From: Patescibacteria group bacterium | GTDB lineage: Bacteria > Patescibacteriota > Minisyncoccia > Moranbacterales > DUUL01 | Assembly: GCA_034660175.1 (NCBI GenBank) | Contig: JAYEIQ010000004.1 | Span: 4,152 to 68,151 of the forward strand | DNA length: 64,000 nucleotides | Reading direction: 5' to 3' | Shown here: positions 37,338-50,477 of the stretch, piece by piece | Numbering within the stretch: position 1 is the first letter of the stretch | How the letters are laid out: every line of letters starts with the position of its first letter | Notes under the pieces: model-generated | Told to the model about the DNA's origin: nothing | The model's database searches: none | What the model saw: only the letters and a program-made list of their open reading frames with translations | Translations under genes and position numbers: made by a program

Positions 37338-38297
37338 TTATTCAAATTTGCTACCGATAAAATGTGGTTTGCCATTCACGAATTCTTGAATCTTCATTTC
37401 ATTTTTTCCTTCGGGGGTGATGATTTTCAGGATGATTGCACCATTGTTTGTAGCAATCAAGACTTTGTTATCAATTTGGAAAATCTCACCCGGTTTTTTC
37501 TCAGGAAAGGTTTGGCTAGTGACTTGAATCTGATTGAAAATAATTTTCTTTTTTGATTTTTTGTCATTCCAAAATGAATATATTTTTGGCCACTTACTGA
37601 ATGCTCTATACTGGTTGAATATTTGATATGATGTTTGTTTCCAGTCGATAAAACCGTCTCTTTTTGAGATTATTTCACAAAAAGATGCTTTGCTTTCATC
37701 CTGTGTTTTTGGAGTGATTTTTTTTGTAATCCACTGTTTCATCGTATCTAGCAAAAGATCTTTGGATATCTCAATAATATGTTTCTCCAACTCTTGATAG
37801 TTTTCATTTTTACCTACCTCAATTTTTTTCTGTGCAAGAATTGGACCAGCATCCATTTTTTTGCTCATTAGCATGATCGAGATTCCAGTTTGGCTTTCTC
37901 CCTTGAGCAGAGCTGTTTGGATGGGTGATGGACCTCTGAATTTTGGTAGCAGTGAAGGATGAATGTTGATGCTACCAAATGTTGGAATTTCTAACAATTC
38001 ATTTGGTAGAAGTATCCCGAAAGCAACCAAAATAATTAGATCTGGTTTTTTTTCTTTAAAAAAAGCAATTGTTTCGTGGTCTATTTTCTCTGTCTGAAAA
38101 ACTTCAATTTCATTTTGCAATGCCATGTTTTTCACAAGTGAGGGAATTGTTTCTTTTTTGCGTCCAAAAGGTCTGTCAGGCTGTGTCACTACGCATGTGA
38201 TGTTGAGATTTGAATCAATCAAAAAGGCAAGGATCTCCATCGCAATGTGGGGTGTGCCCATGAAAATTATTTTGAGATCTTTGACATTTCTTTTCAT
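37338..38297 (-). CDS. fmt: methionyl-tRNA formyltransferase
   Basis: KIIFMGTPHIAMEILAFL N-terminus; formyltransferase HPSLLPKFRG motif; C-terminal Fmt domain; adjacent to def. Confidence 0.85.
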   Translation of the reverse strand: MKRNVKDLKIIFMGTPHIAMEILAFLIDSNLNITCVVTQPDRPFGRKKETIPSLVKNMALQNEIEVFQTEKIDHETIAFFKEKKPDLIILVAFGILLPNELLEIPTFGSINIHPSLLPKFRGPSPIQTALLKGESQTGISIMLMSKKMDAGPILAQKKIEVGKNENYQELEKHIIEISKDLLLDTMKQWITKKITPKTQDESKASFCEIISKRDGFIDWKQTSYQIFNQYRAFSKWPKIYSFWNDKKSKKKIIFNQIQVTSQTFPEKKPGEIFQIDNKVLIATNNGAIILKIITPEGKNEMKIQEFVNGKPHFIGSKFE

Positions 38298-38336
38298 AGA
38301 CTGTCTTTATTGTAAATTTGTTTACGTTCGTTTTTG

Positions 38337-38795
38337 TTACACCGCAACTTTATTTTCGGCCTTTGCCCTGTCGATGAACAGTGTGCCGTCAAGATGATCT
38401 ACTTCGTGTTGAAGAACTCTTGCGAGCAATCCCTTTGCTCGAATTACTTGTTTTTTGCCATTTGCATCAAGAGCTTTGATCTTGATCTTTTTTGGTCTTT
38501 GAATAGGCAAAAACTTTCCGGGAAAAGACAAACAACCCTCTTCCATCAAAACTTGTTCTCCGGAAACATTCTTGACTTTAGGGTTGATGAGGACGAAAAG
38601 TTCGTCGTCAACTTCAATAATGCATAACTGAAGACTATGGCCAATTTGTGGTGCCGCCAAACCCAAACCTTCATGAGCTCTCAATGTAGCAGTCATGTCG
38701 GCGATTAGTCGTTTGATTTTTGAGTCTGTTGGATTTTTTACCTCTTCAGATTTCTGTCTCAGGACGGGATCGGGGTATTTAACTATTTCAAGCAT
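38337..38795 (-). CDS. def: peptide deformylase
   Basis: motifs GLGLAAPQIG, EGCLSFPG, QHEVDHLDG. Confidence 0.9.
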   Translation of the reverse strand: MLEIVKYPDPVLRQKSEEVKNPTDSKIKRLIADMTATLRAHEGLGLAAPQIGHSLQLCIIEVDDELFVLINPKVKNVSGEQVLMEEGCLSFPGKFLPIQRPKKIKIKALDANGKKQVIRAKGLLARVLQHEVDHLDGTLFIDRAKAENKVAV

Positions 38796-38862
38796 GTTTG
38801 ATGTGTTATTTTATATTGAATTTCTAAAGATCTTCAAAACGAAGGCTCTGATTAATATTGTA

Positions 38863-40818
38863 TCAAAAAACATTCTCGGGGTCGATATCTATGCTCCATT
38901 GACTCTTGAGTTTTGCCAATGTTCGCCTTAAGGACTTGGAAACATGTTTATTGGACTTGATCAGGATGTTTTTTTGCCATGTCCTGCGGTTTCTCTGTTT
39001 AATACCCCAAGAAGGAGGATATACTTCCAATACTCCGCTCGGTTTGTTTTTCAAAAATGAATTGTACACTGTTTTAGTATTTTTTTCAACCTTTTGCTTT
39101 GTATCTTCTTTGCAGGTGAGTTTTATCAATTTTTGAAATGGTGGATAGTTGAGTTTCTTTCTATTCTTGAGCTGTTGATGAGCAAACTTGTTCCAGTCCC
39201 ATTTTTTTAAAAAAAGCCAAAATTCACTTTCTGGTCGATATGTTTGAATTAGACAAACTCCACGTTTGTTTCTTGGTGGTCTGCCAACTCGACCAGCTAA
39301 TTGAAAAAAATTGCTCATGTGATGCTCGTCAAATCGGAATTCTGTTTTTCCTGACCAGTTTTCTGCGTTCAAAACGCAAGCAAGCGTTGCATGTTCAATG
39401 TCAAGTCCTTTTGCAATCGCATAGGTCCCAACCAGAAAATCAAGTTTGTTTTCAAGTAAAGAGTTCATGATGAAGCTCCTTTTTCTTTTGTTCTTAAAGG
39501 TGTCTTGGTCTGCTGTTTCGATTTTTGCTTTTGGGAATCTATTTTTTAGGAGATCAGCGACATTTCTAGTTCCAAAACCCACGTTAACTAATCTGAAACT
39601 TCCACATTTTGAACATTGGGCAAAGCTGGAAGATCTAAATTTACAATGAAAACAACGATATTCATCACCATGATTATTGAGTGGCATCGTACAATTTGGA
39701 CACTCCAGAATATTTTTGCAATCACTGCAGACAACAAGTTTACTTTGTCCCCTGTGAGGAACAAGAATGTATGCAATACCGTTTTGTTTAATAGTGCGTG
39801 CCAATTCTTTTTCGAGCTCTTTTGTTATGACGGCGTTTTGTTTTTTCGTGTGGTGAATGCGAAGATTGGAAAAAATAAATTTTGGAGGCAAAACTCTAAT
39901 ATTATTGGTTTTGAGCATCGGGAGCTTGATCCTTTTACAATATGGATTTTTTGACCATTGAATACTTTCAAGCGATGGCGTGCCAGAGACCATTAGCAAT
40001 TTAGCTTTGTGAGATCGAGCAAGGTACTTGGAAACTTCGCGAGCATGATAGTGCGGGCTTTGGTCCCATTGTTTGAAAGAGACGTCTTGTTCTTCGTCAA
40101 CGGCGATTAGTCCAAGATTTTGAAAAGGCAGAAACAGGCCCATTCGTGTTGAGATAATGATCTCCGCAGATCCGTCTTTAACCTGGTTATAAACATGAGA
40201 TGTCTCTGATGGTTTCAGCCCAGAGTGGAAAAGCACAACGTTGTTCTTTTCAAAACGGCTGGTATAACGAGCGATTTCTTGGTGCGATAGAAAAATTTCA
40301 GGAATCAAAAGTAAAATTTGTCTTTTTTGTCTTAGCACTTCTTTGATAACACCCATGATAACTTCTGTTTTACCACAGGAAGCTGGTCCAAAAAGAAGAA
40401 AGGAGGAGACCTTTTTTGAATTGCAAATAGAATAAATTGCTTGTTTCTGATTTTTGGTTAAAGTTAGTTGAACGTCCTTTTTTTTGTTGGCTAGTTTCTG
40501 TTTGGATTGTTTCTTTGTCAAATTGTGCACAAAAAATCTAAGCACAACGCCAAGAGGTGAGAAATATTCTTTCGATATATTCTTGGCAAGGGAAAGTTGT
40601 TTGACTGTCAAAAGTTGTAACACGACAACTTTCTCAATACTTTTTATTTGAAATCGTGGAGTGAATTGAGTTTTTTTTGATACTATTCCTCGAAGTTTCT
40701 TTCCAGCAAAATCAATTTTGACAAGAGTTCCTGGCGACAACTGTTCGTCGTGCTTGTATGTAAACTCCTGATTTTTTGTTAGAGGGAGTTTCGTCAATGG
40801 GATGATGTTGTAGTACAT
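38863..40818 (-). CDS. priA: primosomal protein N' (replication restart helicase PriA)
   Basis: Walker A GPASCGKTEV, DEEQD box, Cys4 zinc-binding insertion (CSDCKNILECPNC...CFHCK...CSKC), 3'BD N-domain. Confidence 0.85.
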   Translation of the reverse strand: MYYNIIPLTKLPLTKNQEFTYKHDEQLSPGTLVKIDFAGKKLRGIVSKKTQFTPRFQIKSIEKVVVLQLLTVKQLSLAKNISKEYFSPLGVVLRFFVHNLTKKQSKQKLANKKKDVQLTLTKNQKQAIYSICNSKKVSSFLLFGPASCGKTEVIMGVIKEVLRQKRQILLLIPEIFLSHQEIARYTSRFEKNNVVLFHSGLKPSETSHVYNQVKDGSAEIIISTRMGLFLPFQNLGLIAVDEEQDVSFKQWDQSPHYHAREVSKYLARSHKAKLLMVSGTPSLESIQWSKNPYCKRIKLPMLKTNNIRVLPPKFIFSNLRIHHTKKQNAVITKELEKELARTIKQNGIAYILVPHRGQSKLVVCSDCKNILECPNCTMPLNNHGDEYRCFHCKFRSSSFAQCSKCGSFRLVNVGFGTRNVADLLKNRFPKAKIETADQDTFKNKRKRSFIMNSLLENKLDFLVGTYAIAKGLDIEHATLACVLNAENWSGKTEFRFDEHHMSNFFQLAGRVGRPPRNKRGVCLIQTYRPESEFWLFLKKWDWNKFAHQQLKNRKKLNYPPFQKLIKLTCKEDTKQKVEKNTKTVYNSFLKNKPSGVLEVYPPSWGIKQRNRRTWQKNILIKSNKHVSKSLRRTLAKLKSQWSIDIDPENVF

Positions 40819-40832
40819 GAGAAGTTTGTTAT

Positions 40833-41627
40833 CTAGCTAATCTTCCATTCTCCTACGAGATAGCCTACTCCAATGGGTCCTTCATATGAATATTGTTTGA
40901 ATGAGTGTTTGAGGTCGGTCAGCGCGCTAAGCGCGATGATGATTGAACGAAGTCCACACTCACCAGCTTCGTCACAAAAATCTGGATTGAGATTTTTTAT
41001 TTTTTCGAGTTCACTTTTTTTCAGCAGATCAATCAATGCATGGTCAAACTTTATACCGTAGGGAGAAAATCCGGCAGGAGCATCCTCTGTCAATCGGTGT
41101 GAAAGGTCTGCGCTGGCAATGAGAGCAATGTTGTGTTCTTGTTGGTTGAGAATCGAACCAATTGCTTTGCCGAATATCTCATGTGTAGACCAATTCAGTG
41201 ATGTAAAAGTGAGAGGAATGACATTTGGTATTTGCTCAAGTTTCGAGATGAGATAATGTAAGGGAACCAAGGTACCATAATCTAGCATTGTTTCTCTAAT
41301 GATTTCAACTGGTATCTGTTTTTCCTTGAGGAAGCTGAACATTTGTCGTGCAACAGCAATGTCATTTTTGAATTCATAATTATCACTGTCTCCACCATAG
41401 TTTGCAAAACTTCCCTTGAGGCGCTCTTCAAGGTTTACTGTGAATTTGTCATATCTCATTGGTCCATGAGGTGAAATAACAACGATTGTTTCAGGCTTGT
41501 GCTTTTTCAATTCGTTTGCAAGTTCTTCCATTCCATCCACGGTTTTTTTTAGGATGGACATTTGGGATCCCCCAACTTGAGGAACGATGAGCGCTGGGTG
41601 GGGGCATATTGCGGCAAAATTTATCAT
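40833..41627 (-). CDS. MEMO1 / LigB-family protein (AmmeMemoRadiSam system protein B-like)
   Basis: 264 aa; N-terminal ICPHPALIVP and VVISPHGPM His-containing motifs characteristic of MEMO1/class-III extradiol dioxygenase B-subunit fold. Confidence 0.65.
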   Translation of the reverse strand: MINFAAICPHPALIVPQVGGSQMSILKKTVDGMEELANELKKHKPETIVVISPHGPMRYDKFTVNLEERLKGSFANYGGDSDNYEFKNDIAVARQMFSFLKEKQIPVEIIRETMLDYGTLVPLHYLISKLEQIPNVIPLTFTSLNWSTHEIFGKAIGSILNQQEHNIALIASADLSHRLTEDAPAGFSPYGIKFDHALIDLLKKSELEKIKNLNPDFCDEAGECGLRSIIIALSALTDLKHSFKQYSYEGPIGVGYLVGEWKIS

Positions 41628-41832
41628 TACAGAAAGTTATAGTGTTATTTTTTCACTTCTGCATTATAGCGGTATCTTTGGCTAAATTCAAATTATTTAG
41701 GCTTTTTTGTTGCAACATCAAAATGACAAAAGATCAAATCTTGATTTTTGTTCATTTTTGATTTAAGATGACTATGTTTACAAGAGCTCTTGACACATTT
41801 TTCGTGTAGTAGTAGTCTAAGAAGGAGCTGTA

Positions 41833-41848
41833 ACACAAGATGTTGTGG
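41833..41848 (+). promoter_or_regulatory. candidate NrdR box upstream of nrdR
   Basis: ACACAAGATGTTGTGG, near-palindromic, resembles NrdR-box consensus acaCwAtATaTwGtgt. Confidence 0.3.
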
Positions 41849-41987
41849 TTTACACAGAAATATAGTACAATATAGATAAACTGACTTACGCAAACAATGT
41901 CAGCAGAATAACAAGACGATATGGGGAGTAGATTAGAAATGGTCTTCATATCGTTTTGTTTTTCATTAAAAAACAAAAAAACATTTC

Positions 41988-42437
41988 ATGAAATGTCCAT
42001 ATTGCAATTTTGAAGATACTCGAGTCATTGACTCAAGAGAGATCAATGAGGGAAGAACAATTCGAAGAAGGAGAGAATGTCCAACTTGTAAAGCGAGATT
42101 TTCAACATATGAGCAGGTTGAAATTCTCAATCTTCTCGTGACCAAGAAAAATGGGAGCAAAGAGGAATACAAAAAAGAAAAACTTGAAGAGGCGATTAGG
42201 ATAGCAACAAACAAAAGAATGAGCGAGGAAGATATCACTCAGCTCGTGACTGACATTGAGGCTGAAATTCACGCAAGAGGGAAATGTGCGATCAGCTCGA
42301 GATATATTGGTGATATTGCACTCAAAAGAATAAAAAGCAAGGACGAAGTTTCGTATTTGAGATTTGCTTCAGTTTTCAAATCTTTCGGAAGTGGCAAACG
42401 TTTTGTGAAAGAGTTGAATAGATTGGAAAAGGAATAG
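41988..42437 (+). CDS. nrdR: transcriptional repressor NrdR
   Basis: MKCPYCNFEDTRVIDSRE...CPTCKARFSTYE zinc ribbon plus ATP-cone. Confidence 0.9.
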   Translation: MKCPYCNFEDTRVIDSREINEGRTIRRRRECPTCKARFSTYEQVEILNLLVTKKNGSKEEYKKEKLEEAIRIATNKRMSEEDITQLVTDIEAEIHARGKCAISSRYIGDIALKRIKSKDEVSYLRFASVFKSFGSGKRFVKELNRLEKE

Positions 42438-42516
42438 CATGTCGAAGGAAGAGTAATTGAAAAAAATTCAAAAATAACAAAAAATCATTAATTAATTTTC
42501 GGGGGAGAAAACAAAA

Positions 42517-44658
42517 ATGAAAAAAAGGAAAACGAGCGTGAAAAAAAGTGTGAAGAAAACTGTAAGAAAGACAGCAAAGGCACGCAAGGCTGTGCGACCA
42601 AAAAACAAAATCAGAAAAATCGTCAAACGTGATGGTTCGGTTGTGTCATTCAGTCAGCAGAAAATTATTGAGGCTGTTTATAAGGCTTTCAAAGAGACGG
42701 ATGAAGGTGGAGTGAAAGAAGCTCGTTTGGTTACCAAAAAGGTTGTTCAGATGATGAATAAAAACTCTCGTCCGGGATATATTCCACATATTGAGGAAGT
42801 TCAAGATCATGTTGAAAAAGTTTTGATGATTCTTGATTTTGATGAGACAGCTAAGGCTTATATACTTTATCGAGACAAGCGACGCAAATTGCGAGACGCT
42901 GATGCCTCTTTAGAAGAGGCAGTTGACTTGATTGAACAGTACCTCAAAGAAATTGATTGGCAGGTGAAAGAGAATTCTAATATGGCATATTCTTTGCAAG
43001 GTCTCAATAATTATATTTCCTCAATTGTTTCAAGCAAATACTGGATGGACAGGGTTTATGCAAAATCTATCAAGCGAGCTCACGAAGAAGGAGATTTCCA
43101 CATTCATGATCTCGACAAGTTGGCTGCATATTGTTGTGGTTGGGATTTACAAGATCTGCTCACTCGTGGTTTCACTGGTGTCACTGGAAAGATATCTTGC
43201 AAACCACCAAAACACTTTCGCAGTGCATTGGGTCAAATTGTAAACTTTTTCTACACAACACAAGGGGAAACTGCTGGTGCACAGGCGTTCTCCAATTTTG
43301 ACACGCTCATGGCTCCTTTTGTGAGATATGACAAACTGAACTATAAAAATGTTAAACAAGCAATTCAGGAATTTGTTTTCAATCTCAATGTTCCAACTAG
43401 GGTTGGTTTTCAGACTCCTTTCACAAATATTACAATGGACTTGGAGCCTCCAAAGATATATAAAAATCAAAATGTCATCTCTGGTGGCCAGCCTCAAAAA
43501 GAGAAATATGGTGATTTCCAGCACGAAATGGATCTTATTAACATGGCTTTTGCTGAAGTGATGAGCGAAGGTGATGCGAATGGAAGAGTTTTCACTTTTC
43601 CAATTCCAACATATAACATCACCAAAAAATTCGATTGGAACAATAAGAATTTGGATAAAGTTTGGGAGATGACAGCAAAATATGGAATTCCTTATTTTGC
43701 CAATTTCATCAATTCGGACATGGATGCAGATGATGCTCGTTCTATGTGTTGTCGTTTGAGACTTGACAATCGAGAGCTTCATAAGAGAATGGGTGGATTG
43801 TTTGGTGCAGCTCCACTGACTGGGTCAATCGGAGTTGTGACAATTAACTTTCCTCGTATTGGATATTTAGCTAAAAACAAAAAAGATTTTTTCAAAAGAT
43901 TGGACAAGCTTATGGATTTGGCAAAAGAGAGTCTTGAAGTGAAAAGGAAAATAGTAGAAAATTTCACACAAAAAGGATTGTACCCGTACTCAATGTTCTA
44001 TTTGAATTCGATTTATAAGAAACTCGGCAGTTATTGGGGCAATCACTTTTCAACGATCGGTTTGGTGGGAATGAATGAAGCACTGGTGAATTTTAAGGAC
44101 ATTACAACAGCAACAAAGGCTGGTGTGAAGCTCGCAGAAGAAATTTTGGTTCACATGCGTGAGAGAATGGTGAAGTTTCAGGAAGAAACAGGAAATCTCT
44201 ATAATTTAGAGGCAACTCCGGCGGAAGGGACAAGCTATCGACTGGCAATCAAAGATAAGAAACGCTTTCCGAAAATGGTGTTTGCTAACAACGGTGCTGT
44301 TCTGAAAGGAGCTCAGCCATACTACACTAACTCTTCGCAGCTTCCTGTTGGACATACTGATGACATTTTTGAGGCGCTGGATTTGCAGGACAAGCTTCAG
44401 ACTAAATATACTGGTGGGACAGTTTTGCACGGATTCTTGGGTGAGCGGGTTACAGACATTGAAACAACCAAAAAAATGGTCAAGAAAATTGCCAAGAATT
44501 ATAAATTGCCTTATTTCACGCTCACTCCAACATTCAGTGTGTGCCCGGTTCATGGATATATAGCTGGAGAACACAATATTTGTCCGGAGTGTGTGATTGA
44601 CCAAAAAACCAAGGTTTTTTCACAAGTGAAGAGGAAAAATACGCAAGTTACAAATTAA
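42517..44658 (+). CDS. nrdD: anaerobic ribonucleoside-triphosphate reductase (class III), catalytic body without glycyl-radical motif
   Basis: Lys-rich 35-aa leader, ATP-cone (IVKRDGSVVSFSQQKIIEAV), NrdD core motifs (CCGWDLQDLL, NITMDLEPP), C-terminal CPVH...CPEC metal site; no RxxGY...NxGK motif before stop. Confidence 0.85.
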   Translation: MKKRKTSVKKSVKKTVRKTAKARKAVRPKNKIRKIVKRDGSVVSFSQQKIIEAVYKAFKETDEGGVKEARLVTKKVVQMMNKNSRPGYIPHIEEVQDHVEKVLMILDFDETAKAYILYRDKRRKLRDADASLEEAVDLIEQYLKEIDWQVKENSNMAYSLQGLNNYISSIVSSKYWMDRVYAKSIKRAHEEGDFHIHDLDKLAAYCCGWDLQDLLTRGFTGVTGKISCKPPKHFRSALGQIVNFFYTTQGETAGAQAFSNFDTLMAPFVRYDKLNYKNVKQAIQEFVFNLNVPTRVGFQTPFTNITMDLEPPKIYKNQNVISGGQPQKEKYGDFQHEMDLINMAFAEVMSEGDANGRVFTFPIPTYNITKKFDWNNKNLDKVWEMTAKYGIPYFANFINSDMDADDARSMCCRLRLDNRELHKRMGGLFGAAPLTGSIGVVTINFPRIGYLAKNKKDFFKRLDKLMDLAKESLEVKRKIVENFTQKGLYPYSMFYLNSIYKKLGSYWGNHFSTIGLVGMNEALVNFKDITTATKAGVKLAEEILVHMRERMVKFQEETGNLYNLEATPAEGTSYRLAIKDKKRFPKMVFANNGAVLKGAQPYYTNSSQLPVGHTDDIFEALDLQDKLQTKYTGGTVLHGFLGERVTDIETTKKMVKKIAKNYKLPYFTLTPTFSVCPVHGYIAGEHNICPECVIDQKTKVFSQVKRKNTQVTN

Positions 44659-44687
44659 CATAATTAAAAAAAATAAAAAATAAAAGT

Positions 44688-44715
44688 CTTGGTCTCGATG
44701 CGACATCGGAACAAG
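44688..44715 (+). other. stem-loop in nrdD / glycyl-radical ORF spacer
   Basis: CTTG-gtct-CGATG-cga-CATCG-gaa-CAAG nested inverted repeat. Confidence 0.3.
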
Positions 44716-44726
44716 GCGACAAAAAA

Positions 44727-44990
44727 ATGAAAGAAGAAAAAACAATTGAGGGGGAAGTGGTCTGCCATGACTGCAAGAGTAAATTAGGAGAAGGTGCTAA
44801 ATATGTAACATACAATACTCCTAGCGGAAATTTCTACAAGTGCGAAGCTTGCTATAAGCAGGATAGCAAATTGAAGGATTTTCAAAAGACGGAAGTTTAC
44901 TCACGTATTGTGGGATATATTCGACCAGTTCAGCAATGGAATGTTGGAAAGGTTGAGGAATATGCAGATAGAAAAGAATTTGTGGTATGA
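44727..44990 (+). CDS. standalone NrdD C-terminal module: Cys4 zinc ribbon plus glycyl-radical domain
   Basis: 87 aa: CHDC...CEAC zinc ribbon then SRIVGYIRPVQQWNVGKVEEYADRKEF matching class III RNR glycyl-radical signature (RxxGY...NxGKxxExxxR). Confidence 0.6.
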   Translation: MKEEKTIEGEVVCHDCKSKLGEGAKYVTYNTPSGNFYKCEACYKQDSKLKDFQKTEVYSRIVGYIRPVQQWNVGKVEEYADRKEFVV

Positions 44991-45042
44991 AAAAGCTGTT
45001 GCGCAGGATAATTATTTTGTGGATCAGAAGCATTCCATATAG

Positions 45043-45077
45043 AAACACTGCCTTTTTTGAGGCAGTGTTTTGTTTTT
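45043..45077 (+). terminator. intrinsic terminator after nrd genes
   Basis: AAACACTGCC-ttttttga-GGCAGTGTTT followed by TGTTTTT. Confidence 0.6.
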
Positions 45078-45206
45078 AACAAGGAAGGTTTTGTAAGATA
45101 GACTTCAAGATTATGAAGGGGTTAATTGTGACCATTGTGAAAAACAAGTTTTTTCACTCAACATATTTAAGAGGAACAAGTTTTTCTCTTCGGAAAGGAA
45201 TTAGTC

Positions 45207-45668
45207 GTGGTTAAAACAATGAAGGATAACATTATAGGTTTTCTTGATGAGGATGAGGTTTGTTTTATGGTAATATTTGATCATACTGATAATCTTTCTG
45301 CGTGTGCCACATTCAATTTTTGTTTTCATTTATATTTTTTGAGAAAAGGCAAGGTGAAGTTTGCTCACGGTAAAGAGGATATGAATTTATGTGGTGACAC
45401 TTTAATTACTGATTTCTTTCAAATCCTGCTCAAGATGATTGACACAATCAATGTTTCATTTGAAGAGATTGGTGATGTTTCCATGAAGGTCGATGGTGAT
45501 TTTCCAGATAGTGTGATTATCAATTGTTGGATGAATCATCCAGACTATGTTTGTTTTGAGTTGGTAGAGTGGTACCCATGTCATTTTGGCAAGGATAATG
45601 GCTTGTATATTGAACAGCGAAAACCACAAATTTTCGAGTGCATTATGAAATTGAAATGTTACAATTAA
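45207..45668 (+). CDS. hypothetical protein
   Basis: 153-aa ORF, Cys/His-containing, no family recognised. Confidence 0.3.
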   Translation: MVKTMKDNIIGFLDEDEVCFMVIFDHTDNLSACATFNFCFHLYFLRKGKVKFAHGKEDMNLCGDTLITDFFQILLKMIDTINVSFEEIGDVSMKVDGDFPDSVIINCWMNHPDYVCFELVEWYPCHFGKDNGLYIEQRKPQIFECIMKLKCYN

Positions 45669-45812
45669 TATTATCAGTTTTTTTTCTGAAACAAGGAGTG
45701 GTTCGAAACTCAAATCGCTCCTTTTGTTGAATGTGAAGTAGAATCGTGCTATTTTATAGATAACGAGAATGAAAATTTAGTTGATGAAATAAGAAATAAA
45801 CAAGACAGTGCT

Positions 45813-46481
45813 ATGGAAATGAAAACTTTTCTGAAATATTTTTTGATTGTTATTGCTTTGGCAATTGTGTCAATTATAATCACTTTTCTTATGAGAATAC
45901 TCAAAGGAGGTTCTGTTGTTGAGAAGGGTCCAGCGGTGTTAACAGGTTCTTCTAAAGAATTTCCAGAGATAGAGAGAGCTAAAAGAGATGAAGTGTTACT
46001 GGTTGTTCCAAAGGATTCTCAAAAGGATTCAAATGAATTGAAGGAAGACTTTGATGATGACTCAGGTTTTCTCGATCAGCAGGAGAAGGAGAAGCAAGAC
46101 AATGCCTCGGTTGATGAAATTCTCGAAAAAATAAAAAACAACTACGCTTTGGATAACTTAAATAACACGAGTGTTGCTTTTGAGTGGATATCCATTGATG
46201 GTGAATCGAAGAAAAATAACAAGATTTCTGGCAAGGGGTTTACGGCTGATGGCAATCTTCAGCACATAGCCGAGATCGAACAATTTTTGAGAGAACAAGG
46301 TTTTGGATCTAGCAAAGAAAATTCTCGAGACGATGACAGGATAAAAATCAATGGCTTTGGCAAAGAAAATTTGGTTTGTTTAGTGACGGCAGCGACAGTG
46401 CGACAAGATGTCACTTTTGAGTTGCATGAGCAGGAGGCGAAAATGGAGGTTCGTTGTGGGGTGATAAGTGTTGGATTCTGA
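45813..46481 (+). CDS. hypothetical membrane-anchored protein
   Basis: N-terminal TM (FLIVIALAIVSIIITFLM), acidic low-complexity region. Confidence 0.35.
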   Translation: MEMKTFLKYFLIVIALAIVSIIITFLMRILKGGSVVEKGPAVLTGSSKEFPEIERAKRDEVLLVVPKDSQKDSNELKEDFDDDSGFLDQQEKEKQDNASVDEILEKIKNNYALDNLNNTSVAFEWISIDGESKKNNKISGKGFTADGNLQHIAEIEQFLREQGFGSSKENSRDDDRIKINGFGKENLVCLVTAATVRQDVTFELHEQEAKMEVRCGVISVGF

Positions 46482-46527
46482 TTGGTGTTAATTCTTTACA
46501 TCAACATCATAATCTTCTAAAATAGGA

Positions 46528-47610
46528 GTGTATCGACAGATGCATAAAAATAAAAAACGAAGAATGGATAAAATAAAAATCATCTTGATGGCTGTTTGCG
46601 TGCTGATTTTTTCAGGTTGTAGTTTTCAAGGAAAAGCTGACGGTGGTTTTTTCAAATCGTTTAACGGTGGAGCAAGCTTTGAGCAAAAAACGAAAATTGG
46701 AGAATCAAGCTCATTTGCAAGTGGTAGTGTTCTTGATCTCGAAATTGATCCTAGCAATTCGGACATTCTCTATGCAGGCACGATATCATATGGAATCATG
46801 AGATCAACGAACGGTGGTGATGATTGGATAAGAGATGTTAGTGGATTCACGAGTGTTGAAGACATCGTGATTAATCCAAAAAATTCAAATGAAATTTATA
46901 TTACAGTGGTTCTTGGTGGAATAGGGAAGATCATGAAAACAAATGATGGTGGAGTTGAATGGGAAGAGGTTTTCACGCAAAGAACAAGTGGCGCTAGAAT
47001 GATGGCCCTTGCAATGGACAAAAACAATTCAGATATACTCTATGCTGGTGACACGTTGGGTGGAATATACAAGACATATAATGCTGGAGCAACATGGCAG
47101 TCTCTGTTGTGGGCAGACAGCTCTATCGAGAAAATAGAAATTGACAATGTGAACACATCAAAAATATATTTTGTCACTTATTCGACAGGAGCACTCAGAA
47201 CTGATGATGCAGGAGGGAACTTTGTTGAAATTGAAACGTCTGGAGTTGTGTATAATGTAGTTGCACATCCAACAAAAGAGGGAGTGGTGTTTGTTAGTGA
47301 CAAGAAAGGTTTGCATCGAAGTGGGGATAGCGGAGGAACACTGAATGAGATCAATACCATTGTTCAACCAGAAAAGTTGGGGTCGATAGGTCTTGCGGTC
47401 AATCCAAAGAATGATAATGAAATATATTTTGCGTCTGGAAGGGCTTTCTATAAGACTACAGATGGAGGACAAACATGGAAATCAGTGCAATTCAATTCAA
47501 CCAAGACAGTGGAAAGTATTGTTGTTAATCCAGAAAATACCGATATAATTTATGTTGGTACGAGCAAACAAGGAAAGTTATCGGGATTTTCCGTATTCCC
47601 GGATCTTTAG
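46528..47610 (+). CDS. lipoprotein with BNR/Asp-box beta-propeller repeats
   Basis: lipobox LIFSGC; repeated S/T-x-D-x-G-x-T/E-W motifs (TNDGGVEWEEV, YNAGATWQSL, TDDAGGNFVEI, SGDSGGTLNEI, TTDGGQTWKSV). Confidence 0.55.
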   Translation: MYRQMHKNKKRRMDKIKIILMAVCVLIFSGCSFQGKADGGFFKSFNGGASFEQKTKIGESSSFASGSVLDLEIDPSNSDILYAGTISYGIMRSTNGGDDWIRDVSGFTSVEDIVINPKNSNEIYITVVLGGIGKIMKTNDGGVEWEEVFTQRTSGARMMALAMDKNNSDILYAGDTLGGIYKTYNAGATWQSLLWADSSIEKIEIDNVNTSKIYFVTYSTGALRTDDAGGNFVEIETSGVVYNVVAHPTKEGVVFVSDKKGLHRSGDSGGTLNEINTIVQPEKLGSIGLAVNPKNDNEIYFASGRAFYKTTDGGQTWKSVQFNSTKTVESIVVNPENTDIIYVGTSKQGKLSGFSVFPDL

Positions 47611-47654
47611 GAAAGGATTAGTGCTGTTTTATTAATAATTCTTCAAAAATATTT

Positions 47655-48212
47655 ATGAAAAATGAAGATATGCAGATCATTAGACTTGAATTGGAGGGCG
47701 CGGTGGAGTTTTTTCAAGAAGAATTAATAAACATTCGAACGGGAAGGGCTAATCCGTTATTGGTGGAGGATTTGGAAATGGAGTATTATGGATCGAAGAC
47801 GCCATTGAAACAGGTAGCTTCTATTTCTGTACAAGACGCAAGGACAATTGTGATTACTCCATGGAGCAAAGATTCTTTGGTGGACATTGAAAAGGCAGTT
47901 AGTGAATCTGATTTGAATTTAAATCCTGTCAATGATGGAAATGTGATTCGATTGGTATTTCCACAACTGACAGAAGAGCGAAGAATGGAACTGGTCAAAG
48001 TGATGAAGAAGAAAACGGAGGAGGCAAGAATAAAAGTGAGAAAAGTGAGAGAGGATGCTTGGGATGGGATTCAGAAGAAAGAGAAAGATGGAAAAATTTC
48101 CGAAGATGATAAATTTCGTCAAAAAGACTCTTTGCAGGGAATCATTGATGAATTCAACAAGAAAATTGAGCAATTAAGCGATAAAAAAGAAGAAGAAGTC
48201 ATGCAAGTCTAA
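47655..48212 (+). CDS. frr: ribosome recycling factor
   Basis: 185 aa, RRF family conserved regions (IRTGRANPLLVEDLEMEYYGSKTPLKQVASISVQDARTIVITPW). Confidence 0.9.
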   Translation: MKNEDMQIIRLELEGAVEFFQEELINIRTGRANPLLVEDLEMEYYGSKTPLKQVASISVQDARTIVITPWSKDSLVDIEKAVSESDLNLNPVNDGNVIRLVFPQLTEERRMELVKVMKKKTEEARIKVRKVREDAWDGIQKKEKDGKISEDDKFRQKDSLQGIIDEFNKKIEQLSDKKEEEVMQV

Positions 48213-48435
48213 ACTTTCTTAAACACATTAAACATATAAGTCTTCTGACATTGTTGATGGTTTTTCAATGGTTTTACCGATTGCAGTGGTCATTTTTTTC
48301 TTTATCTCGTCGGTTAATTTAGAAAAGAGTGTTTATCTTTCTACGAAGCCTTGTTGCTAAGTTGAATGTTTGTAGTTTATAAGATAGTCTAATTAATATA
48401 TTTTTAAATAATAGTTATTGATAATTAAATAAAAA

Positions 48436-49611
48436 ATGTTATTAACGATAGTTGTGTTTTTGTTGATCTTGGGAACTTTGGTTTTGGTTCATGAACTGGG
48501 CCATTTTTTGGTTGCAAAGAGAAATGGTGTGCCATCAGAAGAATTTGGTTTTGGTTTCCCTCCTCGTCTTGTCGGGACATATCGTGATGCTAATGGAAAG
48601 AGAAAATGGATTTTTGGGAACAAGGAAATTGAGGAGGAAATAAAAAAAAGAGAAGAAACCGTATATTCAATAAATCTGATTCCTTTGGGCGGTTTTGTCA
48701 AGATCAAAGGAGAGGACGGTGGTAATAAGAGTGACCCAAAAAGTTTTGCTGTTCAAAGTATCTGGACACGATTCAAAATTCTTGTTGCTGGTGTGACAAT
48801 GAATGCAATTTTGGCAGTGTTTCTGTTTGGATTTGCTTTTTGGATTGGATTGCCAGAAGCTCTTGAAGATGGAGATGTCGTTGCTAAAAGCAAGGTCCAG
48901 ATTTCTGCGGTGAAAGCTGATGGTCCAGCAAAAGAAGCTGGATTGCAGCTTGGAGATGAGATTGTTTCAATTGTTACAAGTGACGGCAGTTTTGAGATAG
49001 ACAGCATTGTTTCATTGCAAGAGATTGTTAGTATTAACTCCAATCAAGAGATTACCATAAACGTTGTTCATCCAGGGGAAGAAGCGTCAGTTGCCATGAA
49101 TGTGATTCCAAAAGAGGATGAAGAAAGCGGCAGAGGCTTGGTTGGAATCGAAATTGTCAGAACAGCTCTTGTGCGACACGGTTTTTTTGAATCTTTTTGG
49201 CTTGGATTGAAAACAACAGTTTCAATGATCGGTGCGATTGTGATGTTTCTCGGGGGTTTGATAGTTAAGCTTTTTACATCTGATCCTGTTCAAACAGAGG
49301 TGGCAGGTCCAATAGGAATTGCCGTTCTTACGGGTCAGATGACTAAAATGGGGTTTGCTTTTATTTTGCAGTTTACAGCGATTCTTTCTGTGAACTTAGC
49401 AGTGATAAATCTTCTTCCTTTGCCAGCACTTGATGGTGGGAGAATTTTGTTCTTGATAGTTGAAAAAATCAAAGGTTCTCCTATAAGTCAAAAAGTTGAG
49501 GGCTTGATGCATACTGTCGGTTTTGTTTTGCTCATGGTCTTGATGGTTTTTGTTACCGCTCGAGATTTTGTGAATTTTGAAATTGTAGATAAAATAAAGG
49601 GGCTTTTTTGA
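48436..49611 (+). CDS. rseP: RIP site-2 zinc metalloprotease RseP (M50 family)
   Basis: HELGHF (HExxH) in TM1, PDZ domain, LDGG motif (ALDGGRILFL) near C-terminus. Confidence 0.85.
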   Translation: MLLTIVVFLLILGTLVLVHELGHFLVAKRNGVPSEEFGFGFPPRLVGTYRDANGKRKWIFGNKEIEEEIKKREETVYSINLIPLGGFVKIKGEDGGNKSDPKSFAVQSIWTRFKILVAGVTMNAILAVFLFGFAFWIGLPEALEDGDVVAKSKVQISAVKADGPAKEAGLQLGDEIVSIVTSDGSFEIDSIVSLQEIVSINSNQEITINVVHPGEEASVAMNVIPKEDEESGRGLVGIEIVRTALVRHGFFESFWLGLKTTVSMIGAIVMFLGGLIVKLFTSDPVQTEVAGPIGIAVLTGQMTKMGFAFILQFTAILSVNLAVINLLPLPALDGGRILFLIVEKIKGSPISQKVEGLMHTVGFVLLMVLMVFVTARDFVNFEIVDKIKGLF

Positions 49612-49814
49612 TAGTTTTGATGAGAATAACCAAAGATCTCGCTCTACAGGCGAGATCTTTTGATAGCGTTGCAAACAATTAAATTTGCGCACGTTTTATT
49701 TTGACAAAAGGTTTTGTCTGGAATTGTTGTGTGATATAATAAGTCTAGATAAGTTACAAATAAAAAAATAACAAATCCTAGTTTAGACAGGTTGTCTTAA
49801 CAGGACAAAGAAAC

Positions 49815-50477
49815 ATGAACAAAAAATTGTTGATTGTTGCTGTTTTGTGTGCGAGTGTTGGTTTTGCTGGTCTTGCACTTGCGGACAATGACACAAAAAA
49901 AACAAAAGAAGAAAGAAAAGAAGAAGTTAAACAGAAGATTGAAGAGAAAAAAGAAAAGATAGAAAAGAAGAAGGAAGAAAGAGTTGAAAAAAGAGAAGAA
50001 AAGAGAGAGAAACGTTGTGATAACATTGAAAAAAGGATTCAAACTAGGATCAATCGCTATGAAAACAACCATAGCCGACATGTGAAAATTTTGGACAAAT
50101 TAGAGGCAAGACTCTCAAAAGTTACAACATTTTTTGAAGGAAAAGAACTTGATGCTTCACAACTGAAAATTGACACAGCAATTCTCTCTACGATGATTGA
50201 CGATGTTGTGGTCACACACAAGATATTCATTGATAAGCTCAAAGAAACTAAGAACTATGTTTGTGGAGAATCTGAAGGAGATTTCAAGAGTCAACTTGGT
50301 GAGGCCAGAAAAGTTCTTCCAGAGGTCAAGAGGGGAATAGAAGAAATACGCACTTTCTATAAAGACACAATTCGACCGGAAATTTTGGATTTGCGAGCAC
50401 AACTTGAAGACGAAGATGACGACAATGACGATGACGATGACAATGACGATGACGATGACGATGAAAAAGGTGAATAA
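49815..50477 (+). CDS. secreted K/E-rich coiled-coil protein with poly-Asp/Asn tail
   Basis: signal peptide MNKKLLIVAVLCASVGFAGLALA; charged heptad-like region; C-terminal DEDDDNDDDDDNDDDDDDE encoded by (GACGAT)n-like repeat. Confidence 0.4.
   Translation: MNKKLLIVAVLCASVGFAGLALADNDTKKTKEERKEEVKQKIEEKKEKIEKKKEERVEKREEKREKRCDNIEKRIQTRINRYENNHSRHVKILDKLEARLSKVTTFFEGKELDASQLKIDTAILSTMIDDVVVTHKIFIDKLKETKNYVCGESEGDFKSQLGEARKVLPEVKRGIEEIRTFYKDTIRPEILDLRAQLEDEDDDNDDDDDNDDDDDDEKGE
50407..50464 (+). repeat. imperfect hexanucleotide (GACGAT/GACAAT) coding repeat
   Basis: gaagacgaagatgacgacaatgacgatgacgatgacaatgacgatgacgatgacgatgaa. Confidence 0.7.

Follow-up and report, generated by a model that had tools for sequence, protein, structure and literature searches.

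A glycyl-radical loop encoded apart from its reductase: a probable two-piece class III ribonucleotide reductase in a Patescibacteria genome and a widespread family of small NrdD-type proteins

The subject of this analysis is an nrdD gene and the small gene that follows it in a 64,000-nucleotide (nt) stretch of contig JAYEIQ010000004.1, from a Patescibacteria group bacterium of the Moranbacterales. This stretch, at its full length, is referred to as the window. NrdD is the catalytic subunit of class III (anaerobic) ribonucleotide reductase (RNR). In the window, the NrdD body stops right after its zinc ribbon and the glycyl-radical motif (RxxGY...GK) is not on the same polypeptide. The motif is found in a stand-alone protein of 87 amino acids (aa), essentially just a glycyl-radical domain, encoded by the next open reading frame (ORF). 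The window probably encodes a working two-piece class III RNR, and the arrangement would be that of an obligate two-piece enzyme as opposed to an optional spare, with the small protein presumably acting in trans. For the family of small proteins as a whole, a role as trans-acting glycyl-radical modules for NrdD is the somewhat favoured interpretation. The features concerned are as follows:

42517..44658, plus strand: nrdD body of 713 aa, with a Lys-rich leader (residues 1-33), an ATP-cone (34-123) and a catalytic barrel (152-702).
44542..44592, plus strand: zinc ribbon of the body, CPVH...CPEC, residues 676-692, as read from the sequence.
44593..44658, plus strand: putative decayed relic of the glycyl-radical loop of the body, VIDQKTKVFSQVKRKNTQVTN followed by a stop, colinear with the intact tails VIDQPCEVYSRIVGYIRPVQQW.
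44727..44990, plus strand: small autonomous glycyl-radical protein of 87 aa, with its own zinc ribbon and radical loop.

Recomputing the ORFs returned the coordinates, lengths and sequences given in an earlier note on this DNA, including the 713-aa and 87-aa products and the 68-nt gap between them. The Pfam model NRDD (PF13597) matches the 713-aa protein with an E-value of 3e-186 and covers profile positions 1-537 of 562. The body also scores above the cut-off of class III RNR catalytic-subunit family models, with 1039.6 bits for NCBIfam NF006126 (cut-off 548) and 537.9 for TIGR02487 (cut-off 326). The 87-aa protein matches the same Pfam model (E = 2e-11) at profile positions 510-562 only. The two matches are complementary, with their overlap confined to the zinc-ribbon part of the model. 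A scan of all six frames across 44300-45100 located the RxxG[YF] and NxGKxxE motifs in the small ORF alone, with no glycyl-radical motif in any frame between the zinc ribbon of the body and the small ORF. The earlier note had proposed that the body lacks the motif and that the 87-aa ORF carries it along with a zinc ribbon of its own; both proposals are borne out by the profile alignment which that note had put forward as a check.

The region is A-rich and contains homopolymer runs, which would favour a sequencing or assembly error (an indel or a chimera) that artificially splits a normal nrdD, and a frameshift near 44600-44730 had been a concern of the earlier note. The probability of such an error is considered negligible. 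An independent assembly, a Logan contig of 45 kilobases (kb) from SRR26901924, is 100% identical to positions 38001-50000 of the window (12 kb), split included. The small ORF has its own start and adds a zinc ribbon to that of the body; for this reason, a normal NrdD cannot be recovered by any indel. Were the two ORFs fused, the product would have the zinc ribbon twice, which is not the case in any intact homolog. The lack of a glycyl motif in any frame of the intervening DNA points in the same direction, as does the recurrence of the nrdD-small gene layout in dozens of other genomes and in many samples. The split is real and not an artefact.

The window body retains 160 of 160 near-invariant positions, defined by conservation of at least 97% among 35 intact NrdDs. 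Cys206, Cys411, Cys412 and Cys676 belong to these positions, and the 713 codons are free of frameshifts. The window shares the finger-loop and active-site residues Cys206, Cys411 and Cys412 with every one of the 35 intact relatives, and this three-cysteine pattern agrees with the NrdD2/3 definition quoted in PMC4493059. The zinc-ribbon motif, CPxHGY...CPxC, is likewise found in intact NrdD relatives. The ATP-cone is preceded by a Lys/Arg-rich leader of approximately 33 residues (42517-42615). This leader, described as unusual in the earlier note, is real but nothing out of the ordinary in the clade, with tblastn alignments of relatives beginning at query residues 2-9, leader included, in several loci. 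The start of the 713-aa NrdD is uncertain, as the public gene call for an identical protein (P0270) begins 7 codons later.

The last 21 residues of the body (VIDQKTKVFSQV, compared with VIDQPCEVYSRI in an intact homolog of 80% identity) suggest a decayed relic of the loop. Against the DNA of intact tails, the radical glycine codon GGT is replaced by AGG and the tryptophan codon TGG of the QQW motif by a TAA stop. This alignment lies in an AT-rich region and is suggestive, short of proof.

The zinc ribbon of the 87-aa protein (CHDC...CEAC) is made up of Cys13/Cys16 and Cys39/Cys42. It is followed by the class III glycyl-radical loop, TEVYSRIVGYIRPVQQWNVGK (TEVYSRIVG63YIRPVQQWNVGK, residues 55-85), in which the codon of Gly63 lies at 44913-44915. 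An AlphaFold2 (AF2) model of the small protein alone, with a predicted local distance difference test (pLDDT) score of 67.7, has a zinc-ribbon-like N-terminal half and places Gly63 at the tip of a β-hairpin (strands 54-59 and 64-69), followed by a helix. With moderate confidence, this topology is that expected.

A word-indexed search returned 228 relatives of the small protein, the best 120 of which are all 52-130 aa in length. A profile search covering 1.84 billion cluster representatives gave 4287 matches; the best 150 of these are all 42-159 aa and most span the whole profile. Across 36 family members, with identity down to 43%, there are 20 invariant columns: both Cys pairs, EVYSR, VGY, RP, W, GK, E and R, with a core of CHDC...KCxxC...EVYSR[IV]VGY.RP..W..GK. 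The small ORF of the window keeps every invariant residue. There is no dedicated Pfam, NCBIfam or PHROG model for this family, and its members touch only the last 50 positions of full-length NrdD models. The Gly_radical model of the pyruvate formate-lyase type (PF01228) gave no match at E <= 1 for five family members, with PF13597 the only model matched, and a phmmer search of the small protein against PDB sequences gave no match. The family is large, widespread, constrained and apparently undescribed.

There is also a third autonomous form, with proteins of 145-165 aa encoded at L054:5713-6150, L055:3450-3905 and L082:5671-6168 of the surveyed loci (L numbers). These proteins correspond to the last ~140 residues of NrdD, namely the final barrel strands, the zinc ribbon and the glycyl loop. 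Each has a Lys-rich start of its own and is flanked by a release-factor-like gene on one side and ftsE/ftsX on the other; the surrounding 5 kb do not encode an NrdD body.

The settings of the small gene were surveyed in one genome per species and in IMG/VR viral contigs. In the first setting, an intact NrdD with its own loop is followed by the small gene and then, always, by nrdG (9 loci: L006-L009, L012, L014, L016, L017 and L022). In the second, NrdD is truncated after the zinc ribbon and the small gene follows, as in the window and 9 other loci; the survey of related genomes suggested by the earlier note has in this way found the same split elsewhere. The relic tails at the truncated loci are all different (e.g., VIEQKTEVFLKVGEEE..., KAEQSSTVYLKVVMAD and MAKARV), and nrdG is kept directly downstream at four loci with a truncated body and a small gene. 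The third setting is an intact NrdD with no small gene adjacent. In the fourth, the small gene stands by itself and nrdD is absent from the surrounding 5-6 kb, as seen in Patescibacteria, Desulfobacterales, Thermodesulfobacteriota and Syntrophales. In the fifth, the small gene is located on phage contigs. The loop of the small protein is 79% identical to that of its own NrdD and 70% identical to those of other NrdDs, which lends weak support to a possible co-adaptation between the two.

Two readings had been offered in the earlier note: a replaceable spare part of the kind known as GrcA/YfiD, and a trans-acting two-piece RNR. The former is supported by those relatives that have the small gene beside an NrdD with its own loop, the latter by the window and relatives in which the loop has decayed and the catalytic body is conserved. 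The evidence supports taking these as two stages of what would be one story. Sister genomes have an intact nrdD together with the small gene, the zinc ribbon is duplicated and an apparent relic of the loop is visible. Duplication came first and decay later.

Loss of the loop is recurrent. Among the 120 closest NrdD homologs of the window body (71-100% identity), 32 break off immediately past the zinc ribbon and have tails of many kinds that are unrelated to one another, and the other 88 are intact. Some of the truncated homologs stop just ahead of the glycine (...EVYSQIVS and ...QVYSRIVD, each followed by a stop). In a neighbour-joining tree without support values, truncated bodies occupy at least four places among the intact ones. 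Three further truncated bodies were picked regardless of their neighbours, and all three have a glycyl-loop ORF directly downstream. Loss of the cis loop has been seen only beside a separate loop ORF, both at the 10 surveyed loci and in the newly sampled set (3/3). Those truncated bodies that are paired with a zinc-ribbon-type small gene each keep at least 98% of the near-invariant positions; judged by their sequences, they are enzymes under selection and not pseudogenes.

One of these three glycyl-loop ORFs, at L171:5137-5593, was left uncalled in the public annotation. This ORF lacks an ATG start, and its zinc ribbon is only half present. Genes of this type are probably under-counted in databases.

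In other lineages (Desulfuromonadaceae, Dojkabacteria and Saccharibacteria), nrdD is plainly split ahead of the loop with no duplicated ribbon, at loci L057, L073, L080, L081, L041, L059, L065 and L079. These plain splits appear to be independent events and would count toward action in trans. They also bear on the possibility that a mobile element (an intron, intein or homing endonuclease) split the gene in the window, leaving two ORFs that are the halves of one ancestral gene. Phage nrd genes split by homing endonucleases are known. Split class II RNRs have been described in the form of NrdJa/NrdJb (PMC9669993). For the window, such an origin is very unlikely, as the 68-nt spacer contains no element, the zinc ribbon is duplicated with the relic of the body's own loop still visible, and sister genomes have an intact nrdD alongside the small gene. 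A duplicated module followed by decay of the original is the preferred account.

The plain splits show some variation of their own. At L041, L059, L065 and L079 (metagenome-assembled genomes of Desulfuromonadaceae or delta-proteobacteria), the body ends in CP[YH]..., without the fourth zinc ligand, and the small ORF starts M..KC..KTEVYSRV[VC]GFFRPV, with nrdG next. The two chains may share one zinc site at these loci. The body and small frames of L041, L065 and L079 overlap, and a frameshift, whether real, programmed or erroneous, may apply there. L080 and L081 (Dojkabacteria) and L058 have mini-ORFs of 45 aa with little beyond the glycyl loop (MTKKPKVVQRQRCEVYSRVVGY...). These sit behind truncated nrdD genes that also bear an insertion of ~1 kb, and the stop-to-stop frame of NrdD in L058 reaches 1488 aa. 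Inteins or introns are likely at these three loci.

It is proposed that the 713-aa NrdD would supply the ATP-cone, the catalytic barrel with its finger-loop cysteines and a zinc ribbon, its own glycyl-radical loop having presumably been lost by decay in place. The loop would be supplied in trans by the co-transcribed 87-aa protein. An NrdG-type radical S-adenosylmethionine (SAM) activase, encoded outside the window, would abstract a hydrogen from Gly63 of the small protein, whose own zinc ribbon would supply the element that adjoins the loop in NrdD. The hairpin of the small protein would then dock into the empty C-terminal pocket of the barrel, and the glycyl radical would be relayed to Cys411/Cys412 of the finger loop to form a thiyl radical there. 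That the small protein is activated, docks and works in trans is inferred. The family probably originated as GrcA-like spare parts for oxygen-cleaved NrdD. With a spare part present, the enzyme's own loop would become dispensable, which may have resulted in its repeated loss.

The remaining features of the locus are as follows:

41988..42437, plus strand: nrdR, a zinc-ribbon and ATP-cone repressor of 149 aa (Pfam Zn_ribbon_NrdR, E = 3.8e-20; ATP-cone, E = 1.4e-14).
44659..44726, plus strand: A-rich spacer of 68 nt with a hairpin at 44686-44717, from minimum free energy folding.
44991..45011, plus strand: lost Cys-Cys tail, KSCCAG and TAA in frame past the TGA stop of the small ORF, from translation.
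45042..45081, plus strand: part that closes the operon, with a strong intrinsic terminator (45042-45071; 13-bp stem and T-run) 3′ of the small ORF.

The nrdR gene is the first of a conserved nrdR-nrdD-small gene cluster, with the same synteny in L001/L002, L169, L170 and L172. The body and small genes are co-transcribed, and a single terminator follows both. The stem-loop that the earlier note had pointed out in the spacer is real (-14.2 kcal/mol, z = -3.1), has no T-run after it and is not a terminator, and its 3′ arm covers the AAGG that is the putative ribosome-binding site of the small ORF. Comparable hairpins are found in approximately half of the related spacers and reach -51 kcal/mol (L018), none with a T-run. 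Possible roles for them are in processing, in stability or in the control of translation. A conserved regulatory role for the spacer hairpin was considered and left out of the mechanism, as these hairpins have no sequence in common and several loci lack them.

Many members of the small family terminate in CC or CxC, which the tails of cis NrdDs do not. This Cys-Cys tail is reminiscent of class I and class II RNRs, in which a pair of cysteines at the C-terminus shuttles reductant. In P0001, a homolog of the window protein with 93% identity, a glycine stands in place of the TGA stop and the protein reads ...EFVVGKSCCAG. Recoding or readthrough of the UGA into KSCCAG was considered and rejected for the window, where TGA is an ordinary stop that ends 14 of 48 long ORFs.

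Several observations weigh against a working two-piece enzyme in the window. Among the stop-to-stop frames of more than 45 aa in the whole 64 kb, none contains the CX3CX2C motif of radical-SAM proteins; therefore, there is no nrdG in the window, which extends the earlier note's remark that none is adjacent. The nrdG gene lies directly downstream in most related loci, and it is missing from this position at 6 of 10 truncated loci, compared with 0 of 9 loci that have an intact NrdD and a small gene. The small protein of the window is without the Cys-Cys tail present in many relatives. The AF2 model of the small protein alone is moderately confident at most, and a Foldseek comparison of this model with the PDB returned nothing significant, with generic zinc-finger matches only. 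The covariation between loops is weak (n = 9, of which three are close relatives), and the neighbour-joining tree carries no support values.

Some of these points would fit a different explanation, in which the nrdD-small pair is what remains of a system in decay and no longer functions. The activase would be gone, the small ORF would be a leftover, and the host would use another RNR or scavenged deoxynucleotides. Patescibacteria are known for their reduced metabolism, and the absence of nrdG from the 64 kb, its absence beside several truncated nrdD genes and the loss of the Cys-Cys tail to a TGA would all be accounted for. This explanation is nonetheless improbable. The body has lost none of its 160 near-invariant positions and has no frameshift in its 713 codons, and the small ORF has lost no invariant family residue. 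Pairs of a truncated body and a small gene recur in many diverged lineages, four of them with nrdG directly downstream, and nrdR is retained upstream in the window. A functional two-piece enzyme is the reading retained here.

The neighbours of unlinked small genes suggest a connection with oxygen. Of the ~25 unlinked copies from bacteria that were examined, 11 have an oxidative-stress context. The gene immediately upstream of the small gene is of the Fur family in L003, L024, L027, L034, L035, L165 and L168, and codes for an Rrf2 regulator in L048. Rubrerythrin is encoded directly downstream in L020, L034 and L048. Hemerythrin follows directly in L031, and an Fe/Mn superoxide dismutase gene is located downstream in L024, L165 and L167. 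At its 3′ end, the Fur-family gene extends 30-45 nt into the small gene at the following loci, and also at L024, L027, L034 and L035:

L003:7640-8312: Fur-family gene overlapping the small gene.
L165:3113-3782: Fur-family gene overlapping the small gene.
L168:3149-3788: Fur-family gene overlapping the small gene.

This overlap suggests one transcription unit with translational coupling. Glycyl radical enzymes exposed to air undergo cleavage of the backbone at the radical glycine (PMC8683613, PMC13450708), and neighbours of this type would be expected for a factor that handles oxygen damage to NrdD.

The same neighbourhoods also fit a protective or sink role, in which the small protein is non-catalytic. 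It would act as a regulator, as a decoy substrate for the activase or as a sacrificial sink for radicals or oxygen, and the truncated NrdD would obtain its radical from elsewhere or serve another role. This is unlikely on three counts. The class III barrel has no known glycyl-free route to a thiyl radical (PMC13450708, PMC9669993). The loop is lost only where a separate loop ORF lies alongside, as set out above for the 10 surveyed and 3/3 new cases. Finally, the loop of the small protein is near-identical to cis loops at every conserved position. Delivery of the radical in trans is the role preferred here.

Phages also carry genes of this type. On the IMG/VR phage contigs L085-L120, glycyl-radical genes of the NrdD type stand alone, and nrdD is absent from the 5 kb around them. 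Examples are as follows:

L088:4929-5228: phage copy, next to terminase small and large subunit genes.
L126:4893-5111: phage copy, next to terminase small and large subunit genes.
L104:4842-5282: phage copy, next to a tail lysozyme gene.

All of the phage copies come from IMG/VR contigs; in GenBank phage records there was no full-length homolog of the small protein, only the C-termini of NrdDs. Copies on contigs that lack nrdD would count toward action in trans, and the phage genes are possible auxiliary genes, by analogy with Y06I of phage T4.

Taken at the level of the family, there is a reasonable case that the 87-aa proteins are the first autonomous glycyl-radical cofactors beyond pyruvate formate-lyase (PFL): a spare part for oxygen-cleaved class III RNR and an obligate subunit where the loop has decayed, as in approximately a quarter of Moranbacteria-like NrdDs. 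Such a spare part would be widespread in Patescibacteria, Desulfobacterota and phages, and its gene is often found together with those of Fur-family regulators, superoxide dismutase or rubrerythrin. Spare-part repair beyond PFL is an explicitly open question. According to a review from 2026, formate lyases are the only enzymes with known spare parts, and the 2021 paper on YfiD merely speculates on spare parts for other enzymes. In the literature, no description was found of the small family, of NrdD being split or having a spare part, of NrdD in Patescibacteria, or of a link to PerR or rubrerythrin.

If the proposal is true, the spare-part principle would be extended to RNR, on which the DNA synthesis of strict anaerobes depends. 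It would help to explain how anaerobes with tiny genomes, such as Patescibacteria, tolerate pulses of oxygen, and the known auxiliary genes of phages would be joined by a new kind. The truncated NrdDs would offer a ready-made system for the trans-delivery of a protein radical in which the oxygen-cleavage step is unneeded, and would illustrate an evolutionary ratchet from repair factor to essential subunit. Gene callers and family models label the small proteins as NrdD fragments or miss them; therefore, the RNR content of metagenomes is mis-scored.

Among known systems, GrcA/YfiD of Escherichia coli and Y06I of phage T4 are alike in being small stand-alone proteins with a C-terminal half that reproduces the glycyl-radical domain of a large glycyl radical enzyme. 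The presumed logic of these spare parts is that they are activated by the activase of the enzyme and dock into an enzyme without a working loop (PMC8683613, PMC13450708). Like GrcA, the small family coexists with an intact enzyme (the 9 loci of the first setting), although this does not hold for the window, where the body is truncated. The link to stress and the presence of phage copies are further likenesses to GrcA and Y06I. Unlike GrcA/YfiD, the partner would be a class III RNR as opposed to a formate lyase, and the family does not belong to PF01228. The N-terminal half is a zinc ribbon, whereas that of GrcA is a disordered region. In addition, the spare would be obligatory in the window and about a quarter of close relatives, a condition that has not been reported for PFL.

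The window enzyme resembles canonical class III RNRs (E. coli, phage T4, Thermotoga maritima, P. copri) in its ATP-cone, barrel, finger-loop cysteines, zinc ribbon and RxxGY...GK motif. The gene context is also canonical-like, with nrdR upstream and, in most relatives, nrdG downstream. It differs from the canonical NrdD and NrdG pair in that the loop is on a second polypeptide with an extra zinc ribbon, and in that nrdG is not in the operon or the window.

The class II enzyme NrdJa/NrdJb of Pseudomonas aeruginosa is alike in that its C-terminal module, which comprises a zinc finger and a cysteine pair, is a separate chain encoded by a gene adjoining that of the barrel (PMC9669993). Its radical is of adenosylcobalamin origin, however, and the C-terminal piece delivers reducing equivalents as opposed to a radical. 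NrdJa/NrdJb is a plain gene split, whereas the window has a duplicated module followed by decay. The window chains match class III models only and not NrdJ, and the small protein ends at its TGA stop without C-terminal cysteines. In phage Aeh1, the class I NrdA is split inside the barrel by a homing endonuclease gene and works as two polypeptides. It shares with the window an RNR catalytic subunit in two polypeptides, but no radical-carrying module is involved. Of the known split RNRs (class II and phage class I), none involves the radical-carrying loop of class III. What would be new here is the extension of the spare-part principle to class III RNR, together with a derived form in which the enzyme is obligately in two pieces.

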